Notes: a model not told the origin generated them from the sequence alone. Positions 2,698-20,174 are shown, counted from the first letter of the stretch. The stretch: 35,589 nt of DNA from Candidatus Limnocylindria bacterium (GCA_039917955.1 JBDSIN010000143.1:1-35589); one strand, 5' to 3'. A program made the numbers and translations.

Positions 2698-3378
2698 ATG
2701 AGTGAGGCCGCGCGCATCCTGGTCATCGACGACGATCCCAAGATCAGGGCGGTCGTGCGCCGCGGCCTGGCCTACGAGGGCTATCGCGTGGTCGAGGCGG
2801 GCAGCGGGGAGGAGGGGCTCGAGAAGGCCCGCGAGCATCTACCGGACCTGGTCGTCCTCGACATCATGCTGCCGGGCATGGACGGGTTGGAGGTCACGCG
2901 CCGACTGCGCTCTGCCGGTGACCAGGTCGCGATCCTGATGCTGACGGCGCGCGACCAGGTGACCGACCGGGTCGAGGGCTTGGAGACCGGCGCCGACGAC
3001 TACCTCGTCAAGCCGTTCAGCTTCGAGGAGCTTCTGGCCCGTGTCCATGCCCTGCTGCGGCGGCGAACCAGCCCCGCCGGCGAGACCCTGCGCTTCGCCG
3101 ACCTTGAGCTGGACGTCGACGCGCGCGAGGCACGCCGTGGCGCCCGCGTCGTCGAGTTGACCACCACCGAGTTCAACCTGCTCCTGCTGCTTCTGCGCCA
3201 CCCGCGCAAGGTGCTGACCCGCGACATCATCATGGAGCACGTATGGGCGTACGACTTCGACGGCGAGTCGAACGTACTGGAGGTATATGTTCGCTACCTG
3301 CGCAACAAGCTGGAAGCGAATGGCGAGTCCCGCCTGATCCAGACCGTCCGCGGGGCTGGCTACGTCCTCAAGGAGTGA
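2698..3378 (+). CDS. OmpR/PhoB-family response regulator
   Basis: Receiver domain (ILVIDDD...[13 protein letters not shown]...KPF) plus winged-helix output domain ([22 protein letters not shown]...VRGAGYVL). Confidence 0.95.
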
Positions 3379-4784: not shown

Positions 4785-4847
4785 CCGCGACCCGTGTCCT
4801 GGTCGCCGACGACGAGGCGGCCACCGCAGTCGCGGCGTCAGCAATGT

Positions 4848-4874
4848 CTCAGGGAGCGCTCAGATCAGACTCAG
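4848..4874 (+). promoter_or_regulatory. Phased CTCAG box (site S2), upstream of the HMA-like/ABC operon
   Basis: CTCAGggagcgCTCAGatcagaCTCAG, three perfect pentamers at 4848/4859/4870. The ATG at 4897 is 27 nt from the third repeat start. Confidence 0.5.
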
Positions 4875-6231: not shown

Positions 6232-7358
6232 GCGCAGCGTGGGTCCTGGCCCGTCGCAACCTGGCCGGCAACCGGGTCCGGCTGCTGGTCTCGGTCGGTA
6301 GCGTCGCCCTCGCCCTGTCGCTGACGATCGCGTTCGACGCGATCTTCGCCGGGGTCGCGAACCAGCTGACGAAATATGTCGATCGGGCCGGCGCGGACGT
6401 GTGGGTCGCCCAGGCCGGCGTGCGCAACCTCCACATGGTGGCCTCCTGGCTGCCCGCCTCGGTGACCGGTGCCGTCAATGCCGTCGACGGCGTGGCCGAA
6501 GTGACCCCCATCCTGTACTCGACCGATACCATCGCCGCCGGCAACGATCGAGCGGTCGCGTACGTCATCGGGCTGCCGGCCGACGCGGCCATGGGCATGC
6601 CGTGGAACGTCGTCGACGGAGCGGACCGACCAGGCCCCGGCGAGGTGATCGTCGACCGCGGCTTCGCCAGCAAGGCCGGCGTCTCCATCGGCGATGACGT
6701 CACCGTCCTCGGCGGCGAGGCGCGGGTGGTCGGCCTGTCGAGCGGAACGGCCAGCCTGGTGAACTCGGTGGCCTTCGTCTCGTTCGAGGACTTTCAGACC
6801 ATGCGCGGCGGCGCCCCGGTCGTGAGCTTCGTCCTGGTCAGGGTCGTTTCCGGCGCCTCGCCGCAGGAAGTCGCCGCCGAGATCGAGCGCGTGGTCCCGG
6901 GTGTGACCGCCCAGTCGCGCGCCGCCTTCGCGGTCGAGGAGCGGCGATTGGTGATGGACATGAGCGCCGACGTCATCGCCATCGTGAACGCCGTGGGCTT
7001 CGCCGTCGGGCTGGCCGTGGTGGCGCTGACCGTCTACGTCGCCACGCTCGCCCGCCGGCGTGAGTACGGTGCCCTCAAGGCGCTCGGCGCGCACAATCGC
7101 TTCCTGTACGGGGTGGTGCTGAGCCAGGCCGTCCTGAGCGTCGCGCTCGGCTTCGTCGTGGGCCTCGCCTTCACCGAACTGATCAGCCTGGCGATTGCAG
7201 GGACCGATCTCAATCTCGAACTTGCCATCAGTGCCCCGTCGCTCGCCAAGGTCGGACTGTTCGCGGCGGTCATCGCCGGTCTCGCCGCGATCCTGCCCAT
7301 CCGCCAGATAGCGAGTCTCGACCCGGCGGTCGTCTTCCGAAAAGGAGCCGCACTGTGA
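6228..7358 (+). CDS. FtsX/MacB-type ABC permease (half-transporter 2)
   Basis: ARRNLAGNRVRLLVSVGSVAL helix and RRREYGALKALGAHNRFLY motif. ATGA overlap upstream and GTGA overlap downstream. Confidence 0.85.
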   Translation: MSAAWVLARRNLAGNRVRLLVSVGSVALALSLTIAFDAIFAGVANQLTKYVDRAGADVWVAQAGVRNLHMVASWLPASVTGAVNAVDGVAEVTPILYSTDTIAAGNDRAVAYVIGLPADAAMGMPWNVVDGADRPGPGEVIVDRGFASKAGVSIGDDVTVLGGEARVVGLSSGTASLVNSVAFVSFEDFQTMRGGAPVVSFVLVRVVSGASPQEVAAEIERVVPGVTAQSRAAFAVEERRLVMDMSADVIAIVNAVGFAVGLAVVALTVYVATLARRREYGALKALGAHNRFLYGVVLSQAVLSVALGFVVGLAFTELISLAIAGTDLNLELAISAPSLAKVGLFAAVIAGLAAILPIRQIASLDPAVVFRKGAAL

Positions 7359-8251
7359 CAACTCTGACGCTCGACGTGCGCGACGTCACCAAGCGCTTCG
7401 GTGACGGCGAGACCGCGGTGACCGCCGTTCGTGGGGTCACCCTCGCCGTCGACCCGGGCGAGGTCGTCCTGATCATGGGTCCATCGGGCTCGGGCAAGAC
7501 GACACTGCTGTCGATGATGGGCGCTCTCCTGCGGCCGACATCCGGCTCGATCCACCTCGACGGGACCGAGATCAGCGCCCTCTCCGAGGCTCGCCTGCCC
7601 GCTATCCGGCTGCGTCAGTTCGGGTTCATCTTCCAGGACTTCAACCTGCTGTCGGCCCTGTCGGTCCGTGAGAACGTGGCACTCGTCGCCGAGCTGGCGG
7701 GCCTCAGCGGACGTGCGGCGCGGGACAAGGCAAGCGCGCTGCTTACCGAGCTGGGCCTCGGCGAGCGGCTCGACTTCCTGCCGGAGAAGCTGTCGGGTGG
7801 AGAGAAGCAGCGGGTGGCGATCGCCCGGGCGCTGATCAACGATCCGACGCTCATCCTGGCCGACGAGCCAACCGCCAACCTCGACTCAAAGATCGGGCAC
7901 GAGATCATGCGCCTGCTGCGGCGCATTGCCAAGGACCAGGGACGCAGCGTGGTCATCGTCAGCCACGACCAGCGCATCCGTGACATCGCCGACCGCGTGC
8001 TGTGGCTCGAGGATGGCGCCTTCAAGGACATGGTGACGATGGCCACCGACCCGGTGTGCGGCATGGCGGTCGAGCGCGAGCGGGTGGTCAGCGGGAGTCG
8101 GGACGGGGAGACCTACTTCTTCTGCTCGAACGGCTGTCGGGCCGAATTCCTCGCCGCCGATGGGCAGGGGCCGCGGAACTGGATCCGGGCGGCGTCCGCG
8201 CTCATCTCACGACACACCACTCCAACCGGTGGTCGCCGCGGTCGCGACTGA
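7355..8251 (+). CDS. ABC transporter ATP-binding protein (MacB/LolD-like) fused to a C-terminal YHS/TRASH metal-binding domain
   Basis: Walker A GPSGSGKTT, signature LSGGEKQRVAIARAL, Walker B LILADEPT. The C-terminal DPVCGMAVE...YFFCSNGCRAEF (about nt 8045-8155) matches the YHS pattern. Confidence 0.9.
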   Translation: MTTLTLDVRDVTKRFGDGETAVTAVRGVTLAVDPGEVVLIMGPSGSGKTTLLSMMGALLRPTSGSIHLDGTEISALSEARLPAIRLRQFGFIFQDFNLLSALSVRENVALVAELAGLSGRAARDKASALLTELGLGERLDFLPEKLSGGEKQRVAIARALINDPTLILADEPTANLDSKIGHEIMRLLRRIAKDQGRSVVIVSHDQRIRDIADRVLWLEDGAFKDMVTMATDPVCGMAVERERVVSGSRDGETYFFCSNGCRAEFLAADGQGPRNWIRAASALISRHTTPTGGRRGRD

Positions 8252-8359: not shown

Positions 8360-8386
8360 CTCATCTACCACTCAGCCTGATCTCAG
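8360..8386 (+). promoter_or_regulatory. Phased CTCA box (site S3)
   Basis: CTCATctaccaCTCAGcctgatCTCAG, with repeat starts at 8360/8371/8382. It lies 58 nt upstream of the ATG at 8444. Confidence 0.45.
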
Positions 8387-8443: not shown

Positions 8444-8650
8444 ATGACACGAACCCTCCGACTCGCGCTGGCGACGGTCGCCCTCGTGGGCCTGCTCGTC
8501 GGGGCCAGCCCGGTTGCCGCCGCGGAAGACGGGGCCGCCTACGGCGCCCACGTCGCCCACCACGCGACGACCGAAGGCGGCTTCAGTGGCGCCTGCAACC
8601 CGGGCATGCACCGCGGTTTCTCCGACAGGGCGGTCTGTCCGGGCCACTGA
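8444..8650 (+). CDS. Small secreted His/Cys-containing protein (hypothetical)
   Basis: GAGGTGG SD element ends 3 nt before the ATG (3-nt spacer). Signal peptide LALATVALVGLLVGASPVAAA. The roughly 42-aa mature part, EDGAAYGAHVAHHATTEGGFSGACNPGMHRGFSDRAVCPGH, has 5 His and 2 Cys. Confidence 0.55.
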   Translation: MTRTLRLALATVALVGLLVGASPVAAAEDGAAYGAHVAHHATTEGGFSGACNPGMHRGFSDRAVCPGH

Positions 8651-8669: not shown

Positions 8670-9311
8670 ATGATGACCTTCGGGAGTGGATCCTTCGGGG
8701 ACTGGATCATGATCCTTGTGCCCATCGCGCTCGTCGTCGGGGTCGTTCTGATCGCGCTCTGGGCGGTCCGGCTCCTGGGCGGGGGTGCCGAGGACGACGC
8801 GCTCCGTCAGCTCCGGGCCAGGTTCGCGCGGGGCGAGATCGAGGCGCCGCAGTTCGAAGAGATGCGACGGGCCCTCGAGGCGACGGACGGACCGCGAACG
8901 GGTCGAAGCGCCCTCGGCATCGTCGGACTCGTCCTCGTCGTGGGGGCCATCCTCCTCGGCACCGCCGCCGGCTGGGGTGGGACGACCGGGCCGGGCTGGG
9001 GCGGGATGATGGGACCCGGCGGGATGATGGGCTGGGGACCCGCCCCCACCGCCCCGGCGGGGACCTCCGTGCGCATGGCCGGGTCGCGGTTCGAGCCGGC
9101 GACGCTGACCATCGCCCCGGGCGCGACCGTACGCTGGTTCAACGACGACGCCCTGCCGCACACCGTCACCGCCTCCGACGGCTCGTGGGACTCGGGCAAC
9201 CTCTCGCCCGGAGGCTCCTACGAGCGTCGCTTCGACTCACCGGGCACGTACGCGTATCTCTGCCGCTACCACCCGGGCCAGGCCGGCTCGATCGAGGTTC
9301 GGGCGCCCTGA
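8670..9311 (+). CDS. TM-SHOCT-TM-Met/Gly-rich-cupredoxin fusion protein (type-1 copper site with putative axial Gln)
   Basis: SHOCT motif LRARFARGEIEAPQFEEMRRAL, Met/Gly tract GWGGMMGPGGMMGWG, and plastocyanin/amicyanin-like ligands PHTV...YLCRYHPGQ. Confidence 0.8.
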   Translation: MMTFGSGSFGDWIMILVPIALVVGVVLIALWAVRLLGGGAEDDALRQLRARFARGEIEAPQFEEMRRALEATDGPRTGRSALGIVGLVLVVGAILLGTAAGWGGTTGPGWGGMMGPGGMMGWGPAPTAPAGTSVRMAGSRFEPATLTIAPGATVRWFNDDALPHTVTASDGSWDSGNLSPGGSYERRFDSPGTYAYLCRYHPGQAGSIEVRAP

Positions 9312-9346
9312 CCAGGGGGCCGCGTTGAAGGGGCCAAACCCCACGC

Positions 9347-9373
9347 CTCACCTCGCTCCCACCTCGCTCTCAT
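9347..9373 (+). promoter_or_regulatory. Phased CTCA box (site S4), upstream of cytochrome b
   Basis: CTCACctcgctCCCACctcgctCTCAT, with repeat starts at 9347/9358/9369. The first two units form an 11-nt direct repeat. Confidence 0.4.
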
Positions 9374-9467
9374 CGGACGCTAAGGACGAGGGAGTCCGAT
9401 AACCGCGCACACGACAGCCCTTCGCCGAACACCCGACCGCAAAGGACGGCGGGGAAGGAGAACCTCC

Positions 9468-10556
9468 ATGGGTACCCACGGGGCCATCGGCCAGCGGCGA
9501 TCCTGGCATAGGGCATGGGAGGCGCTCGACGAGCGCCTCGGCCTCAGCGGGCTGGCCTATCCGGTGCCGGCCCACGCCAACGGCATCGGCTACATCCTGG
9601 GCGGTATCACCTTCTTCGGTTTCCTCATCCTGGCGGCGACCGGCATCTGGCTCTCCCAGTTCTACCACCCCACGCCGTCCTCGGCCCGCGAGAGCGTGGT
9701 CTACATCATGAACATGGCCCCGCTCGGCGACCTCGTCCGGGGCATCCACTTCTGGGTGGCCAATATCGTGATGGCCACCGTGCTGCTGCACATGGGCCGC
9801 GTCTTCGTGACGGGCTCCTACAAGCGGCCGCGCGAGGCGAACTGGCTCATTGGGCTCGGGCTGCTCGGGGTGACGCTGGGCCTGCTCTTCACTGGCACGG
9901 TCCTGAAATGGGACCAGGAGGCCTACGAGGCCCTCGCCCACAACGTCGAGATGGGCGACCTGCTCGGCGCCTTCGGCTTCTGGTTCTCGGCTGACTTCGC
10001 GGCCAGCCTGCCGATCCTGGGCAGGCTGTATATAGCCCACATCGCCATCCTGCCCGCGCTCGGGGTGCTGCTGCTGCTCGCCCATTTTCTCCTCGTCAAG
10101 CGCCACGGCATCTCGGCGCTGCCGGCGCAGGCTGACGCAGCGGTCGACGGCGGACCGATCCCGGCGAAGGGTGGATCGACGTTCACCGCCCACCTGGCGC
10201 GGATGGCGGGGTTCGGCCTGCTGATGCTCGCCGCGGCGACGATCGTGTCGCTCATCTGGCCGGCGGGCCTTGGACCGCGCCCCGTGCCGGGCGTTGAGGA
10301 GACGAAGCCGCCGTGGATGTTCCTGCCCTTCTATCCGCTCGAGGACTGGTTCGGGCTGATCGCCCTGTTCTGGGCCCCGGCGCTGCTGTTCGGCGGGCTG
10401 GCACTCGTGCCGTTCATCGACCGCAGCCCGTACCGCTCCCCCGCGCGGCGTCGAGTGTTCATCGCCATCGGCGCCATCGTGGCCATAGCGCTCACCGCGC
10501 TGGTGATGTACGCCCTGTTCACCGTGCCCCAGGCGCACATCCAGGAGGCGATGTGA
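9468..10556 (+). CDS. Cytochrome b (bc-complex type, fused N- and C-terminal domains)
   Basis: Two helix-embedded His pairs spaced about 14 residues apart (IHFWVANIVMATVLLHM and AHIAILPALGVLLLLAH). Conserved KWDQ and PPWMFLPFY motifs. GGAAGGAG SD element. Confidence 0.9.
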   Translation: MGTHGAIGQRRSWHRAWEALDERLGLSGLAYPVPAHANGIGYILGGITFFGFLILAATGIWLSQFYHPTPSSARESVVYIMNMAPLGDLVRGIHFWVANIVMATVLLHMGRVFVTGSYKRPREANWLIGLGLLGVTLGLLFTGTVLKWDQEAYEALAHNVEMGDLLGAFGFWFSADFAASLPILGRLYIAHIAILPALGVLLLLAHFLLVKRHGISALPAQADAAVDGGPIPAKGGSTFTAHLARMAGFGLLMLAAATIVSLIWPAGLGPRPVPGVEETKPPWMFLPFYPLEDWFGLIALFWAPALLFGGLALVPFIDRSPYRSPARRRVFIAIGAIVAIALTALVMYALFTVPQAHIQEAM

Positions 10557-10765
10557 TGGCCGCCGTGCTGTTCCGGCTCGCGTTGCTGGCGACCGGCCTG
10601 GGCGTGACGGAGATCGGTCTCGGCAACGCGCTGGCCGCAGGATCGCCGTGGGGCTGGGCGCTCGTCCTTTTCCTCGGGCTCCCGCTGATCGTCGCCGGCT
10701 CCGCGGGCTTCATGGTCACGCTTCTTGGCGGAAGCAAGCAGAAAGGCAGATCCACCGATGCGTAG
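10556..10765 (+). CDS. Small 2-TM membrane protein (hypothetical)
   Basis: TGATG coupling to the cytochrome b gene, with AGGAGG upstream. Hydrophobic sequence AAVLFRLALLATGLGV...WALVLFLGLPLIVAGSAGFMVTLLGG. Confidence 0.45.
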   Translation: MAAVLFRLALLATGLGVTEIGLGNALAAGSPWGWALVLFLGLPLIVAGSAGFMVTLLGGSKQKGRSTDA

Positions 10766-11282
10766 CTCCGTACCGTTTGGCATGGTGGCCGGGCTGTTGC
10801 TGGTGCTCGGCTCCGCCGCGACCGTGCTGGCCGACGGCAGCGGCGAGGAGGGGATCGGCGTCGAGCCGGCCAGCGTGACGGCTGGTGACACGGTCATCCT
10901 CGCCGGCAGCGGGCTGGAGCCCAACAACGAGCGGGTGATCGTCCTGGCCGGGCAGGATCTCGTCGTCGACTTTGGCACGGTCACCACCGACGCCGCGGGA
11001 ATGTTCCAGACCGAGCTGACCATTCCCAGCCACCTCCCATCCGGGGTCTACGAGTTCCGCGCCATCGGCGACGAGATCCTCACCGCGCCGCTGGCGGTCA
11101 CCGCCGCGGCTGGTGGGGCGGGGTCGTCACCGGTTCCAAACGACCTCAGCAACACCGTCGTGCCTCGCGAGCGAACGGCGATCGAGTTCGGCGTGGTCCT
11201 CGCCCTCGCCGCCGCCGCCGCCCTCGCGGGCGCATTCCTGGTCTGGCGCGCGGAGGGTCGGCGGAGCACGTCAGCCACGTGA
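10758..11282 (+). CDS. Secreted beta-sandwich (Ig-like) protein with C-terminal TM anchor (hypothetical)
   Basis: Signal peptide MRSSVPFGMVAGLLLVLGSAATVLA and C-terminal helix FGVVLALAAAAALAGAFLVW followed by RAEGRR. Overlaps the previous stop. Confidence 0.6.
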   Translation: MRSSVPFGMVAGLLLVLGSAATVLADGSGEEGIGVEPASVTAGDTVILAGSGLEPNNERVIVLAGQDLVVDFGTVTTDAAGMFQTELTIPSHLPSGVYEFRAIGDEILTAPLAVTAAAGGAGSSPVPNDLSNTVVPRERTAIEFGVVLALAAAAALAGAFLVWRAEGRRSTSAT

Positions 11283-11327: not shown

Positions 11328-11354
11328 CTCAGCGTGCTCTCAGGCAATGCTCAC
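11328..11354 (+). promoter_or_regulatory. Phased CTCAG box (site S5), upstream of the CsoR-like operon
   Basis: CTCAGcgtgctCTCAGgcaatgCTCAC, with repeat starts at 11328/11339/11350. It lies 55 nt upstream of the ATG at 11409. Confidence 0.45.
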
Positions 11355-11408
11355 GGCCGATTCACCCGCAACCTGCACCGTTTCAGCGGCAAGGGAGGAT
11401 TGGTCCGC

Positions 11409-11756
11409 ATGAGCATGTCAGCCGGTGATCGAGGGGGTGCTGTTCGGCACGCCCAGCGAGCAGCCGGCCAGGCCTCCGCCGTCGCCACCATGATCGCGGG
11501 CAGCCGGCCATTCGCCGACGTGGCGCAGCAGCTGCTCGCCGCACGTGGATCGCTCGACTCACTGCTCGTGCGCCTTGTCGAACTCGAACTTGAGGGTTGC
11601 GTCCCGAACCCCACGGCGCGCAGGGAGGTGCACGAATTGCTGCACTCCGCGAGGGGGCGGGCGGGACACAGCCGGCACGCGGCTCGCTCGCGGATCGGCC
11701 GGCCGCCGGAGGAGGCGGAACCGCCACGTGTCTTGGAAGGAAGGACATCTTCATGA
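11409..11756 (+). CDS. CsoR/RcnR-family (DUF156) transcriptional repressor, non-canonical ligand set
   Basis: Helical pattern AQRAAGQASAVATMIAGSRPFADVAQQLLAARGSLDSLLVRLVELELEGCV aligns by eye to the CsoR core. The first Cys is replaced by F and the His by E. Confidence 0.65.
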   Translation: MSMSAGDRGGAVRHAQRAAGQASAVATMIAGSRPFADVAQQLLAARGSLDSLLVRLVELELEGCVPNPTARREVHELLHSARGRAGHSRHAARSRIGRPPEEAEPPRVLEGRTSS

Positions 11757-12244
11757 CTCGTCGAGCTCAGACGGGACGCATCCAGCGGCATTCTCCAATG
11801 CCGGCTGACTCTCGATCGATGGCATCGGCCGTGCCGCGTTCGGTCCGGTTGGGCGCATTTGCGGCGCTGGCGCTGGTCGTGGGCGGTGTCGCCATCGCTC
11901 TCGTGGTGAGCCGCCTCCAGGGACCCGCCGCGACCGATACCACTGCCATCAGCGTTCGGGCAAGCATGGGTGGCTTCGATCCCTCGGCGCTCATCGTCAA
12001 GCCGGGTGAGACGGTTCGGATCGAGCTCACCAGCCTCGACACGGCGTTCCACAGCGACGGTGGCGGCTGGCATCAGTTTGCGATCGACGAGCTCGGCGTT
12101 GACTGGAAGGTCGGGCCGCAGACCAGCGAGGTCTTCGAGCTCATTGCCCCTACCGCGCCGGGGACCTATAGCTGGTACTGCGATATCTGCTGCGGCGGCA
12201 AGGAGAACCCGTCGATGCGCGGCACGCTGACCGTGGCGGCGTGA
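11753..12244 (+). CDS. Membrane-anchored cupredoxin-like protein with YCDICCGGKENPSMRG motif (paralog of 1099-1572)
   Basis: ATGA coupling to the CsoR-like gene. TM helix LGAFAALALVVGGVAIALVV. Shared blocks SMGGFDP, DEL, PGTYSWYCDICCGGKE, GTLTVAA. Confidence 0.75.
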   Translation: MTRRAQTGRIQRHSPMPADSRSMASAVPRSVRLGAFAALALVVGGVAIALVVSRLQGPAATDTTAISVRASMGGFDPSALIVKPGETVRIELTSLDTAFHSDGGGWHQFAIDELGVDWKVGPQTSEVFELIAPTAPGTYSWYCDICCGGKENPSMRGTLTVAA

Positions 12245-13113
12245 TGGGCGCCGCGACCGGGCAGCCGCGCGCTCGCCCGCGGCTGCTTATCCTCGTCGTC
12301 GGTGCGGTTGTGGCCGCCGCCGCCGCCGCTGTCCTGGTCCCGGGACCGGCGCCCGCGGGCCACGAGGCCCTGGCCGACCTGAGCCTGCCGGCCATCATCG
12401 GCGCCGGGGTGCTCGATGGCTTCAACCCCTGCGCCTTCGGGGTCCTCATCCTGTTTGCGACCTTTGCGCTGGGGCTGGCGGCACGCCAGTCGCTCGCCGC
12501 CGGCGCTGGTGCTCCCGGCGCTGGTGCTCCAGACGTACGGGGGGCTAGCCGCACCGTGCTCGGACTGGGGTCATTCTTCGTCCTCGGCGTGCTGGCCACC
12601 TACTTCCTGCTCGGCCTGGGCCTCCTGACCGTGCTCTCCTCGCTGACCGACTTCGGTGGCAACCATCTGCCGAGCCGAGTTGCGGCCCTCGTCGCGGTCG
12701 GGCTCGGGCTGTGGATGCTTCGCGACGTGCTCCTGCCCGATGCGCGCTGGAAGCTGGAGGCTCCCCACGCGCTCCACGGCCGCATGCGCGACTGGGCGCG
12801 GTCGAGCTCACCGGTGGCGCTCTTCGGCGGCGGCGTCCTGATCGGACTCTGCACGGTCCCGTGCAGCGGGGCGGTCTACCTCGGCGTGGTGGCGCTCCTG
12901 GGAGTCAGCGGCACGTTCTCGGCGGGCCTCGGCGGCCTCGCCCTCTACAACCTGGCCTACATCACGCCGCTGGTCGGCCTGCTGGTGCTGGCCAGCCGAC
13001 CGGGCCTGATCCGGGTCATCAATCGCTGGCACCTGGAGCACGCGGAGGGCACCAGGCTGCTCCTGGCGATCGTGGTCCTCGCGCTCGGGTTCGCGATTCT
13101 ACTGACGGTATAG
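12241..13113 (+). CDS. CcdA/DsbD-family transmembrane protein (paralog of 1574-2449)
   Basis: GTGATG overlap with the upstream stop. Motifs LDGFNPCAF and LCTVPCSGAVYL. Confidence 0.8.
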   Translation: MMGAATGQPRARPRLLILVVGAVVAAAAAAVLVPGPAPAGHEALADLSLPAIIGAGVLDGFNPCAFGVLILFATFALGLAARQSLAAGAGAPGAGAPDVRGASRTVLGLGSFFVLGVLATYFLLGLGLLTVLSSLTDFGGNHLPSRVAALVAVGLGLWMLRDVLLPDARWKLEAPHALHGRMRDWARSSSPVALFGGGVLIGLCTVPCSGAVYLGVVALLGVSGTFSAGLGGLALYNLAYITPLVGLLVLASRPGLIRVINRWHLEHAEGTRLLLAIVVLALGFAILLTV

Positions 13114-14745: not shown

Positions 14746-15203
14746 CAACCCACGTTCACGACCCCTCGATCGAGGCTCCTGACGGCGGCGGCAGCAGTTC
14801 CGCAGCCATCAGGCGACCTGACCCGGCCATCGCTCGACCGCGATGGCTCCTGCCCGCCCTCGCGGCCGTTGTGGTGGCCACGGGCCTGGTCGTCGCCGGC
14901 GTCGTCTCGGCTTCGACCGTGCTCTCGGTTGCGCTGTTCGGCGGTATGCTGCTGATGCATCTCGGGGGTCACGGCCACGGCGGGCATGGCGGGCATGGCG
15001 GGCATGGAGAGGCCGGACCCGGAGGCCACGGCGGGCACGACGAGCGAGGGGTAGTCCGCGACGAGGATCTCAGCGGGGGCTCAGGTGGCTCTCAGTCTGC
15101 GCGGCCAGGCTTCAATGACGGGCCCGATGACCGAGCCTCGGAGGATCAGAACCGCAACGAGACAACCGACCGTGACCAGCACCCTTCACACACCTGCCAC
15201 TGA
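14742..15203 (+). CDS. DUF2933-like His-rich membrane protein
   Basis: ATGA coupling to lgt. Two TM helices, then [30 protein letters not shown]. The 3' tail overlaps site S7 and the copA 5' end. Confidence 0.6.
15069..15095 (+). promoter_or_regulatory. Phased CTCAG box (site S7), immediately upstream of copA
   Basis: CTCAGcgggggCTCAGgtggctCTCAG, three perfect pentamers at 15069/15080/15091. Candidate copA ATGs at 15115 and 15127. Confidence 0.5.
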
Positions 15204-18463: not shown

Positions 18464-19696
18464 GTGCCGCGACGAAAGATAGGCCGGAGGACCCGATCGA
18501 GAGGACTGCCGGGTGTGATGCCCCGCCCAGGCATGCAGCGAGTTGGCGCGAGTGGCCATCCCACCGCTGAGCGTGACGGTGCATCGGGCGAGGTCGAGGC
18601 GGAGGCGCTGTCGATTACCCACTGGTTTGCATCTGAACCGGACGGCGATTCGTACGCGGCGACCGTGCGGTTCACGGGCCGACGCATCGGGGTGTCGGGA
18701 AAACCCGGGCCGCGGGACACCTTCGTGAAGGATGAGTCCGTCGATCGCGTCGTACCGGGAAGCGGCCCGGTTTCAGTCACCACCTGGGCATACGGACTCG
18801 AGCCCGGCGAGTGGACCGTCACCGCTGGCCTCACGCGCCCCACGCCCAGCGGGCGGGCTGGTCAGTCCTCCCAGGGTCGGAAGCCACCTGGCGGCCACAC
18901 CCTCCCAACTGCGGCATGGTCCTGGACGCGCTGGGCGCTGTCGGTCGGCCAATTCGCCCCGGTGAAGACGCGGTGGGCACCGTTGGTCCGCATGACCAGG
19001 ATGCCAGCGGTCATTCCGGGCAGCTGGTCGGGCCTGATCGCCGTGGGCATCGTCGTCGGCGCGGTGGTGCAGTCAGCACTGCTGGCGCGCGCCAACGTCG
19101 CGGTTGGGCTTTCGCTGCTGGTCGACCTGATCGCGCTGGCGTCAGGCATCTTGTTGGCGAAGCTGTGGTACCTGGCCCTGCAACCGCGCACCTCGTGGCG
19201 AGAATCGATCGGCGAGGGCTGGACCATGGACGGTATCCTCTTCGCGGCCCCGGTCGTGGGCGTCGCCGCGTTGACTGCGTTCAACGTGCCGATCGGCGTC
19301 TTTCTGGATGCCAGTGCGGCTGGCCTCTTCTTTGGCGTCGCCATCGGGCGGCTGGGCTGCTTCTTCACCGGGTGCTGTGCGGGTCGCTGCACGCGCTCCC
19401 GCTGGGGCGTCTGGTCCTCGGACCGCCGTGTTGGAGCCCGCCGCATCCCGACCCAGCTCCTTGAGTCAGCAACAGGCCTGCTCATAGGTGTCGCGTCCAC
19501 GTTGTTGGTTCTTGGCTCGCCCACGCCTGCCGGCTCGGTCTTCGTGGCGGCGGTCGCAGTCTACGTCCTCGTCCGGCAGTTCCTGCTCCGACTGCGGGCT
19601 GAACCGCACAATCCAATCAGGGTGCGGGTGACGGCTGCAGTTGCGGGCCTGGTGCTTGTAGCCACTGCGGGGATGATGTTGGCCAATGCGGGCTGA
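18464..19696 (+). CDS. Divergent Lgt-family protein with about 190-aa N-terminal extension
   Basis: GTG lies 6 nt after GAGGTGG. The C-terminal half has GRLGCFFTGCCAGR...RRIPTQLLES (Lgt arm and HPTQLYE-like motifs). The WxGGLS motif is replaced by WTMDGI. Confidence 0.7.
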   Translation: MPRRKIGRRTRSRGLPGVMPRPGMQRVGASGHPTAERDGASGEVEAEALSITHWFASEPDGDSYAATVRFTGRRIGVSGKPGPRDTFVKDESVDRVVPGSGPVSVTTWAYGLEPGEWTVTAGLTRPTPSGRAGQSSQGRKPPGGHTLPTAAWSWTRWALSVGQFAPVKTRWAPLVRMTRMPAVIPGSWSGLIAVGIVVGAVVQSALLARANVAVGLSLLVDLIALASGILLAKLWYLALQPRTSWRESIGEGWTMDGILFAAPVVGVAALTAFNVPIGVFLDASAAGLFFGVAIGRLGCFFTGCCAGRCTRSRWGVWSSDRRVGARRIPTQLLESATGLLIGVASTLLVLGSPTPAGSVFVAAVAVYVLVRQFLLRLRAEPHNPIRVRVTAAVAGLVLVATAGMMLANAG

Positions 19697-20174
19697 CGGT
19701 TCGAGGCTTCGCTCGGTACGACACGGCCGGCTCCGTTGGACCATTGGCCTGATTGGCGCGGCGCTCCTGATCTTGACCCAGGCAGGTTGCGTCGGTTCGA
19801 TGGGTCCGATGGGTCCGATGGGTCCGATGCATCCCGGCATGCACGGCCCTGGCGGTGGGAGCCAAGACGATGCCCCATCGCCAGTTCCGGGAGCTCCCGA
19901 ACTGGTCGCCACGGCCACGGAGTTCGCCTTCGAACCCGGTGAGCTGCGGATTCGCGTCGGCACGACCGTCAACCTCACGCTCGTCAACCGCGGTCAGCTC
20001 TACCACGACCTGAGCATCAGCGACCTTGGATTCGTCCTTACCGCCGATCCCGGTGACACCGCCAGCGGTGCCGTGACGGTCGCCGACGTCGGCCGATTCA
20101 GGTTCGTGTGCAGCGTGCCGGGGCACGCCGAGGCGGGGATGACTGGCACCCTGGTGGTCGAGGCGGAATTCTGA
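19686..20174 (+). CDS. Met-rich cupredoxin (type-1 copper site), probable lipoprotein
   Basis: Signal peptide ending LILTQAGC. MGPMGPMGPMHPGMHGPGG tract. Copper ligands YHDL...FVCSVPGHAEAGM. Confidence 0.8.
   Translation: MRADGSRLRSVRHGRLRWTIGLIGAALLILTQAGCVGSMGPMGPMGPMHPGMHGPGGGSQDDAPSPVPGAPELVATATEFAFEPGELRIRVGTTVNLTLVNRGQLYHDLSISDLGFVLTADPGDTASGAVTVADVGRFRFVCSVPGHAEAGMTGTLVVEAEF

Follow-up and report, generated by a model that had tools for sequence, protein, structure and literature searches.

We analyzed a 35.6-kb stretch of DNA, seemingly an entire contig, from a soil and sediment Candidatus Limnocylindria bacterium (hereafter the window; G+C 69%), and specifically the region between positions 8360 and 11364, in which all genes and regulatory boxes lie on the plus strand. 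The region centers on a gene for a di-haem cytochrome b of 362 amino acids (aa) with seven transmembrane (TM) helices (9468-10556), which was recognized from Pfam, a match to solved structures, and alignment. This gene is followed by one for a 2-TM small subunit of 69-70 aa (10553-10765), the start of which overlaps the cytochrome b stop codon, and by one for an anchored immunoglobulin (Ig)-like subunit of 174 aa (10758-11282), which was characterized using homologues, an AlphaFold2 (AF2) model, Foldseek, and hhalign. Start/stop overlaps thus run through the three genes along 9468-11282. Upstream lie a membrane-tethered type-1 cupredoxin, termed here the SHOCT-cupredoxin (8670-9311; Pfam, family alignment, and profile search), and a small secreted protein (8444-8650). 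Phased CTCA boxes punctuate the region: an exact match (8360-8385) precedes the unit formed by the small secreted open reading frame (ORF) and the SHOCT-cupredoxin, a box with one mismatch (9347-9372) is located about 100 nt upstream of the cytochrome b, and two overlapping boxes (11328-11364) open a CsoR unit and delimit the cytochrome b operon on its 3′ side.

The gene at 9468-10556 encodes a genuine di-haem cytochrome b. The protein exceeded the Pfam cut-offs for Cytochrome_B (PF00033; 82.7 bits, cut-off 27.2) and Cytochrom_B_N_2 (PF13631; 92.7 bits, cut-off 27), and barely passed that for Cytochrom_B_C (PF00032; 21.7 bits, cut-off 20.7), in keeping with a build in which a b6-like part is fused to a subunit-IV-like part. 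The closest solved structures were cytochrome b6 chains (E 1e-32). An original prediction, made from the window alone, had described both bis-His helix pairs, and these were borne out by the Pfam scores and by the haem ligands H94/H108 (H-x13-H) and H191/H206 (H-x14-H), which give two bis-His haems. Among 40 full-length members of the clade described below, the four haem His were invariant or at least 90% conserved, and the same level of conservation (at least 90%) extended to Q150, E151, E154, A155, H158, F239, H242, W283, E292, and H357. The first five, which are nearly invariant, belong to a cd1-helix motif, D149-Q-E-A-Y-E-A-L-A-H158, while H357 is placed on the outer side because it is located past helix 7. 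Additionally, the Qo motif P-E/D-W-Y is replaced by PPWM in the window (T279-K-P-P-W283-M; clade consensus TKPPW). The CxGG motif is absent, with YILGG at the position of YCLGG in b6, and the protein is therefore taken to be without haem cn. All NCBIfam equivalog models scored far under their cut-offs (for instance, 143.7 against a cut-off of 325 for PRK03735).

At the level of the locus, this cytochrome b is Rieske-less. Strict and loose patterns (CxHxGC...CxCH) were used to scan the window and the ±10 kb surrounding related loci. Neither pattern recovered a Rieske motif in the 35.6-kb window, and no bc-type Rieske motif was present within ±10 kb at 41 related loci (40-89% identity). A more distant Bryobacterales locus (L042; 33% identity) served as a positive control, having a Rieske protein just upstream and a seven-haem cytochrome c downstream. 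CxxCH occurred in only two frames in the window, both of them spurious: one was antisense to a Kelch gene, and the other, of 120 aa, lay opposite a 282-aa ORF without a Pfam match. These scans agree with the original prediction, which had found no Rieske protein, cytochrome c1, or cytochrome c in the window and which had stated that it would be refuted if orthologous loci carried such a gene, Rieske or cytochrome c, immediately beyond the operon; the 41 loci scanned were negative.

The conserved partners of the cytochrome b are the 2-TM peptide and the anchored Ig-like protein. The triad, in the order cytochrome b, 2-TM peptide, Ig-like protein, was found, with start/stop coupling, at every Limnocylindria locus with enough downstream flank, usually surrounded by a CopI-like cupredoxin, CsoR, a cupredoxin/CcdA-like pair, Lgt, and CopA. 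Searches of Pfam and NCBIfam returned nothing significant for either small partner. In the family alignment, the 2-TM subunit carries an invariant intramembrane Glu and a VAGSAGFM motif. For the Ig-like protein, homologues placed the start at ATG 10758 and not at TTG 10725, giving a protein composed of a signal peptide with a predicted cleavage between VLA and DGSGEE, a beta-sandwich, an Ala/Gly linker, and a C-terminal TM helix. The beta-sandwich and C-terminal helix were also present in the AF2 model (mean predicted local distance difference test score, pLDDT, 81.5), and Foldseek retrieved only generic Ig, macroglobulin, and neocarzinostatin folds, which offered no functional clue. The predicted mature protein starts with His (cleavage between MA and HEGSGEE) in about 95% of 121 Ig-like family members. 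The window protein starts with Asp, and in a check for a CopC-type histidine brace CopC was not among the top 50 Foldseek matches.

Several lines of comparison tie the anchored partner to the cytochrome b. Natural fusions of cytochrome b, an Ig-like domain, and an anchor exist (P0365, P0366, and P0369), which is Rosetta-stone evidence of a physical complex. The fused C-terminal domain of P0365 is homologous to the Ig-like family of the window (hhalign 97.6%, E 5e-12), as is a neighbor protein in Bipolaricaulota (hhalign 98.6%). A scan of one genome per species yielded 38 cytochrome b loci, and at about 30 of these an adjacent gene on the same strand encodes a C-terminally anchored protein with a predicted cleavage between Ala and His, occasionally between Ala and Asp. 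The mature parts of these proteins are unrelated: Chloroflexota and Bipolaricaulota have an Ig-like one, L011 has a DOMON domain (Pfam E 8.6e-10), and Nitrospinota and Nitrospirota have a disordered His/Met-rich chain starting HGGGHK.... Across the partners, the amino-terminal residue was the only common feature. In L011, a metagenome-assembled genome (MAG) labeled 'uncultured archaeon', the anchored DOMON protein, which is predicted to start HEEGEE after the Ala of its cleavage site, precedes the clade cytochrome b (L011:5275-7179).

To place the cytochrome b among its relatives, we used an exhaustive HMMER search of 1.84 billion representatives, which gave 217 matches below 1e-30; motifs were counted in the best 150 of these 217, as representatives at 50% identity. 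The cd1-helix motif DQE[AG]xEAxxH was present in 96 of the best 150, and a [TSVA][KRQL]PxW loop was at the position of the Qo motif in 62. P[ED]W[YF] was found in 25, the clear [VA][KR]PEWYF sequences being low in the list of 150 and without the cd1 motif, and CxGG in only 4. In a phylogenetic reconstruction from a quick IQ-TREE run, in which the mis-cut L013 row is to be disregarded, the PEWY-type sequences clustered with L042, the Rieske-linked locus, and separately from those that bear the motif (SH-like approximate likelihood-ratio test, SH-aLRT, 83). Judged by these motifs and this topology, the window protein, a cytochrome b superfamily member, falls in a large and separate clade whose hallmarks are DQExxEAxxH, TKPPW, and a His at the P-side (outer) C-terminus.

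The clade spans Chloroflexota, Bipolaricaulota, Actinomycetota, Nitrospinota, and Nitrospirota. Sequences with 80-98% identity to the window cytochrome b fell into more than 120 clusters, while relatives at 40-56% identity came from Bipolaricaulota, Dehalococcoidia, a MAG labeled archaeon, Actinomycetota, and many Nitrospinota and Nitrospirota. In public MAGs, proteins almost identical to those of the window are labeled Candidatus Limnocylindria or Chloroflexota. In some members, His/Met-rich tails prolong the P-side C-terminus (P0411 and P0426), and others carry long helical repeats. Copper genes recur beside the cytochrome b of Bipolaricaulota, Chloroflexi, and Actinomycetota; among the neighbors are CopA, CsoR, the pair of a CuA-like cupredoxin and a CcdA-like protein, and proteins with TRASH/YHS domains. 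We found no description of the clade's motifs or partner pattern in the literature, nor anything on an orphan Rieske-less cytochrome b or on a histidine brace combined with cytochrome b and DOMON, and the Limnocylindria literature, searched also under Ellin6529, provided no account of complex III. Long cytochromes b encoded in conserved operons without an assigned function have been mentioned as a clade G′ (PMC5600118), which may correspond to the present one.

Two further observations concern members of the clade outside Chloroflexota. One Bipolaricaulota locus (L009:15238-17136) holds a second, highly divergent clade paralogue of 437 aa with RGDQEAFEAWVH and ITKPPW, which is preceded by a Cys-rich 176-aa protein and followed by an RND/MMPL-like transporter. 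In L018 (8509-9550 and 11096-11341) and other Nitrospinota loci, a CYCYCKK...GH protein, a TlpA-like thioredoxin, and a glutaredoxin-like protein flank the cytochrome b.

The CTCA boxes link the operon to its surroundings. Phased CTCA-N7-CTCA-N7-CTCA boxes occurred eight times in the window against 0.1 expected, and a pattern count located them at 2542-2567, 4837-4873, 8360-8385, 9347-9372, 11328-11364, and 15069-15094. They precede a response regulator/two-component system (with an OmpR-type regulator at 2698-3378), an ABC permease, the cupredoxin unit, the cytochrome b, the CsoR unit, and CopA. The box ahead of the cytochrome b at 9347, already noted in the original prediction, was thus recovered as one of the eight. 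Similar boxes were present 100-135 nt upstream of the cytochrome b in L001, L005, L006, and L008, where they also stand ahead of CopA and cupredoxin units. Moreover, one metagenome contig (run X7) is without exactly 11 nt at window positions 9349-9359, which equals one CTCA repeat period, so that strains differ by a whole box unit. We consider the boxes candidate response-regulator sites common to the cytochrome b, CopA, and cupredoxin units. Because the boxes are separate and shared, the triad would form its own transcription unit within a common regulon, which is presumably copper-responsive, and the earlier assignment of the unit to a copper gene set is supported by these common boxes.

The SHOCT-cupredoxin had been proposed as part of an electron route with the cytochrome b. 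The protein passed the Pfam cut-offs for Copper-bind (PF00127; 33.9, cut-off 21.2) and, narrowly, Cupredoxin_1 (27.3, cut-off 27), and scored under the cut-off for SHOCT (23.5, cut-off 27). It comprises a first TM helix, a cytoplasmic SHOCT-like segment, a second TM helix, a Met-rich linker (GMMGPGGMM), and the cupredoxin domain. Its ligands H164, C198, and H201 align with those of solved cupredoxins, and Q204, encoded by CAG at 9279-9281, occupies the axial position in the loop C198-R-Y-H201-P-G-Q204. In a 28-member alignment, the axial residue was Met (C-R-Y-H-P-G-M) in 26 of 27 homologues, and Gln was found only in the window copy. In the family profile, this loop matched the Cys-His-Met ligand loops found in amicyanin, in plastocyanin, and in the C-terminal cupredoxin of NirK. 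Since both the family and the profile alignments put Gln at the Met site, the axial assignment and the amicyanin-length loop given in the original prediction are correct, and the possibility it had raised, that alignment with characterized cupredoxins would place the axial ligand elsewhere, did not materialize. The likeness to stellacyanins that it had drawn extends to the axial Gln but not to the loop. Stellacyanins have a C-x4-H-x4-Q loop in a plant phytocyanin domain, the present loop is C-x2-H-x2-Q, and the best profile matches were to amicyanin and plastocyanin.

Sequence accuracy could be assessed from contigs of four independent metagenomes (from four studies), which agreed over 9092-9471 and 10564-10888, and in which both the Gln codon (9279-9281) and the Asp codon (10833-10835) of the Ig-like partner were the same. 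A sequencing error behind the axial Gln was ruled out, because the change from ATG to CAG needs two base changes and the codon was identical in the four metagenomes; Gln is therefore a fixed variant. In the sister lineage L045 (1247-1888 and 3332-3973), the cupredoxin has an axial Met and the partner an N-terminal His, compared with Gln and Asp in the window lineage. Both replacements substitute oxygen donors for softer or nitrogen donors, and would favor Cu(II) and lower potentials in this one lineage.

Synteny argued against a fixed association of this cupredoxin with the triad. There was no SHOCT-cupredoxin match in loci L001-L042, and the gene was directly upstream of the triad only in the sister lineage L045/L046 (90% identical, axial Met). 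In two other Limnocylindria (L043:5331-8642 and L044:6248-8657), the SHOCT-cupredoxin is beside rhodanese, metallo-beta-lactamase-rhodanese, OsmC, SQR/FCSD-like, and DsrE genes, a hint of a role in sulfide or persulfide oxidation. On the synteny of these loci (L001-L042, L043, and L044), we rejected the SHOCT-cupredoxin as an obligate partner of the cytochrome b. Hence, of the neighbor set named in the original prediction, the 2-TM and anchored Ig-like proteins are conserved and the SHOCT-cupredoxin is a neighbor in one sublineage only. Similarly, the minimal quinol:cupredoxin route that it had proposed retains the Rieske-less locus and the copper gene set, and loses the SHOCT-cupredoxin as its conserved component.

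Other genes of the window were also noted. The protein encoded at 8444-8650 is a secreted His/Cys/Met-rich ORF product of 68 aa with a signal peptide, and its mature part, about 42 aa long, is His-rich and contains two Cys and one Met. A search of Pfam and NCBIfam gave no match to it. A copy with 62% identity is located upstream of the cytochrome b in L006. The protein may bind metal, and the gene is accessory, lying outside the conserved triad. Past 11364, the gene order is CsoR, a CuA-like cupredoxin, a CcdA-like protein, a cupredoxin-like protein, Lgt, CopA, and a TRASH protein. Positions 7355-8251 encode an ABC transporter ATPase of the MacB/FtsX type that ends in a YHS/TRASH metal-binding domain. 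Two paralogous pairs (787-2449 and 11597-13113) each consist of a Cupredoxin_1 protein that bears the CuA-like motif C-x2-C-C...M and of a CcdA-like membrane protein, which in both pairs has two Cys motifs and no significant Pfam or NCBIfam match; this pair is also kept beside the cytochrome b in Bipolaricaulota and at another Chloroflexi locus. A CopI-like cupredoxin, encoded in the window at 19686-20174, directly follows the triad in most Limnocylindria loci. With 50 bits against a cut-off of 280, it falls outside the CopI family proper, and we found no cytochrome b linked to CopI in the literature. CopI itself contributes to copper tolerance, with a redox partner that is as yet unknown (PMC13308877). 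Elsewhere, in L003 (3046-4681), a COX operon opens with an anchored Met-rich cupredoxin and encodes a COX2 with a C-terminal triple repeat, MGPMPGMSMAPGETMAPPT.

Compared with known systems, the cytochrome b shares with those of bc1 and b6f complexes the fold family, H-x13-H in helix B, H-x14-H in helix D as in b6, KRPRE, a W-D-Q region, and a PxW loop. It differs in having no adjacent Rieske or cytochrome c/f gene, in PPWM for PEWY, and in the lack of haem cn, as well as in its cd1 helix DQEAYEALAH with a conserved His, its P-side C-terminal His, and its 2-TM and Ig-like partners. The original prediction had looked to archaeal SoxM-type complexes for an analogy. In SoxM complexes the cytochrome b is accompanied by a Rieske protein (SoxF) and by sulfocyanin, and the analogy is weak because of that Rieske protein; in the window there was no Rieske gene, and the ORF at 19686-20174 scored 18 bits against 168 for the sulfocyanin model. 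SoxC, which works in SoxABCD without a Rieske protein, is a nearer precedent. The SoxC/SoxN cytochrome b homologues of Sulfolobales have PPWF, with Pro at the second Qo position (PMC4122944). The window protein nevertheless scored only 81 bits against the NCBIfam SoxC cut-off of 740, and SoxC is archaeal, much longer, and encoded in an oxidase operon, while no oxidase genes were found in the window. ExtP, the best NCBIfam match though below its cut-off, was considered as a Rieske-less precedent and rejected, since its partner ExtO is a Rieske protein (PMC5877670).

Nitrospina provides a further comparison. A second, unsplit cytochrome b away from the bc operon has been mentioned for Nitrospina gracilis (PMC3578206), and we infer that this extra protein is a member of the present clade. 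The Nitrospina loci L017-L041 encode clade members (40-44% identity) that share its motifs and, as in the window, are not accompanied by a Rieske gene; these loci differ from the window in having a disordered His/Met-rich anchored partner and TlpA-like/glutaredoxin-like neighbors in place of CopA and CsoR. The cupric/ferric reductases of eukaryotes (cytochrome b561/Dcytb and CYBDOM proteins) are bis-His di-haem membrane proteins that pass electrons to an extracytoplasmic metal site or a DOMON partner. They have an unrelated fold and ascorbate, not quinol, as their donor, so that their likeness to the window system, and to L011 with its DOMON partner, is one of analogy only. Among cupredoxins, the SHOCT-cupredoxin has the fold, the His-Cys-His ligands, and the C-x2-H-x2-X loop of amicyanin and plastocyanin, from which it differs in its two TM helices, SHOCT-like segment, and Met-rich linker, and in scoring under the equivalog cut-offs. 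Auracyanin D of Chloroflexus provides a Chloroflexota precedent for an axial Gln, with a potential of +90 mV (PMC10804444).

Taken together, these comparisons lead us tentatively, with a confidence a little short of even, to a copper-regulated, Rieske-independent complex that would carry electrons from quinol to extracytoplasmic copper. The products of 9468-11282 probably form one membrane complex, composed of the di-haem cytochrome b, the 2-TM subunit, and the C-terminally anchored Ig-like subunit on the outer face, without a Rieske protein or cytochrome c. Quinol, probably menaquinol, would be oxidized by the cytochrome b, and electrons would exit on the P side at a site made up of His158 (cd1 helix), the loop TKPPW, and His357 near the C-terminus. 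The first residue of the mature partner, His or, in the window lineage, Asp, would complete this exit site. This site may hold copper, either as a cofactor or as Cu(II) that is the substrate. From here, electrons could pass to the cupredoxins of the island, or Cu(II) could be reduced to Cu(I) for handling by Met-rich proteins. Through the CTCA boxes that they have in common, the operon would be induced alongside the CopA pump and the cupredoxin units. That copper sits at the interface, that electrons flow in this direction, and that copper controls the operon are each proposed from comparative sequence evidence. For electrons, type-1 or type-2 copper lies downhill of menaquinol and the reverse path is uphill, and it is because of this thermodynamic gradient that we favor the direction from quinol to copper. 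A more far-reaching version, which we regard as speculative and improbable, is that a mononuclear copper center formed by His158, His357, and the partner's N-terminal His/Asp replaces the Rieske [2Fe-2S] cluster as high-potential acceptor, in a copper-based Q-cycle enzyme that might be called a cytochrome b-Cu complex. If this were true, bacteria such as Limnocylindria and Nitrospina could use such a complex when copper is plentiful and iron-sulphur or cytochrome c maturation is copper-stressed.

Several points weigh against a quinol:copper complex of this kind. The partner in the window lineage does not have the N-terminal His, its Asp being encoded at 10833-10835, and the signal cleavage sites that define the amino-terminal residue were predicted by eye. 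Outside Limnocylindria the Ig-like protein does not keep its internal His92, and the copper ligands would therefore have to be residues of the cytochrome b. Production of extracellular Cu(I) seems counter-productive in a resistance island, and the neighbors of the Nitrospina cytochrome b are thiol-redox genes, not copper pumps. RNA runs holding the window stretch were sought and none was found. Finally, Rieske genes need not adjoin cytochrome b genes (PMC5600118), and a Rieske protein could be encoded elsewhere in the genome.

This last point underlies a conventional explanation, an ordinary Rieske/cytochrome b complex with the Rieske protein and the acceptor encoded elsewhere and with the 2-TM and Ig-like proteins as accessory subunits. 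The retained subunit-IV-like part and PxW motif fit with it, and in Nitrospina the Rieske protein of a separate, bc-like operon might serve both complexes (PMC3578206). Against this stand the 41 loci in at least five phyla with no adjacent Rieske gene, the cd1 helix, normally a Rieske docking and Qo surface, which now reads as polar DQExxEAxxH, the change of PEWY to PPWx, a different P-side partner that is conserved and at times fused, and equivalog scores far under their cut-offs, such that we consider it distinctly unlikely. The triad might instead be the main substitute for complex III, a quinol:cupredoxin oxidoreductase feeding a CuA-type aa3 oxidase through anchored cupredoxins with no specific role in detoxification. 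The cytochrome b is very strongly conserved (80-98% identity over the >120 clusters). In L001 the triad is beside nuo genes, and in L003 it is 2.3 kb from the COX operon, where COX2 has the full CuA motif and no cytochrome c domain and the operon opens with an anchored cupredoxin; this combination of oxidase CuA and anchored cupredoxin makes a respiratory role through cupredoxins possible. Chloroflexus likewise uses auracyanin as a cupredoxin that feeds its oxidase. The position beside COX or nuo genes is not conserved, however, and the boxes common to CopA point to conditional expression. Nitrospina also has a canonical bc operon (PMC3578206), which argues against the clade being a general complex III. 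Overall, we hold this role as main complex III to be unlikely.

Two other possibilities concern copper itself. Electrons could flow in reverse, in an O2-independent Cu(I) oxidase, analogous to CueO or CopI, in which Cu(I) exported by CopA is oxidized by cupredoxins or the anchored subunit, with the electrons delivered to the quinone pool through the cytochrome b. The copper-resistance context with CopA and CsoR would suit such an enzyme, as would the CopI-like cupredoxin in the cluster at most loci, given that the electron acceptor of CopI is unknown (PMC13308877). Yet type-1 or Met-bound Cu(I) has a potential of about +90 to >+300 mV, and passing its electrons to menaquinone and the low-potential haem b would be uphill and against the membrane potential, and we think reverse flow very improbable. 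Alternatively, the triad may be unrelated to copper and merely co-travel on the island, acting as a transmembrane electron wire to another extracytoplasmic acceptor, such as a thiol/disulfide or a haem. The TlpA-like and glutaredoxin-like neighbors in Nitrospinota, the one DOMON partner, a domain that usually binds haem or sugar, and an Ig-like fold without a recognizable metal site are consistent with this. TlpA-type proteins, though, serve in CuA assembly, copper genes turn up repeatedly beside the cytochrome b in Chloroflexota, Bipolaricaulota, and Actinomycetota, and both the His/Met-rich partners and tails in the clade and the boxes common to CopA speak for copper; a copper-unrelated function is, on this evidence, unlikely.

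The cytochrome b of bc1 and b6f complexes counts among the most thoroughly studied proteins of energy conversion, its mechanism being defined by the partnership with a Rieske protein, and the clade described here, which retains both haems and the subunit-IV-like half, would show a second use of the cytochrome b scaffold. With at least 96 clusters at 50% identity, it includes abundant soil and freshwater Limnocylindria as well as the main marine nitrite oxidizers. The paired Met-to-Gln and His-to-Asp changes of the window lineage would represent a natural experiment in copper-site tuning. Moreover, the presumably copper-controlled setting provides a testable link between the quinone pool and extracytoplasmic copper, a step missing from models of bacterial copper homeostasis.

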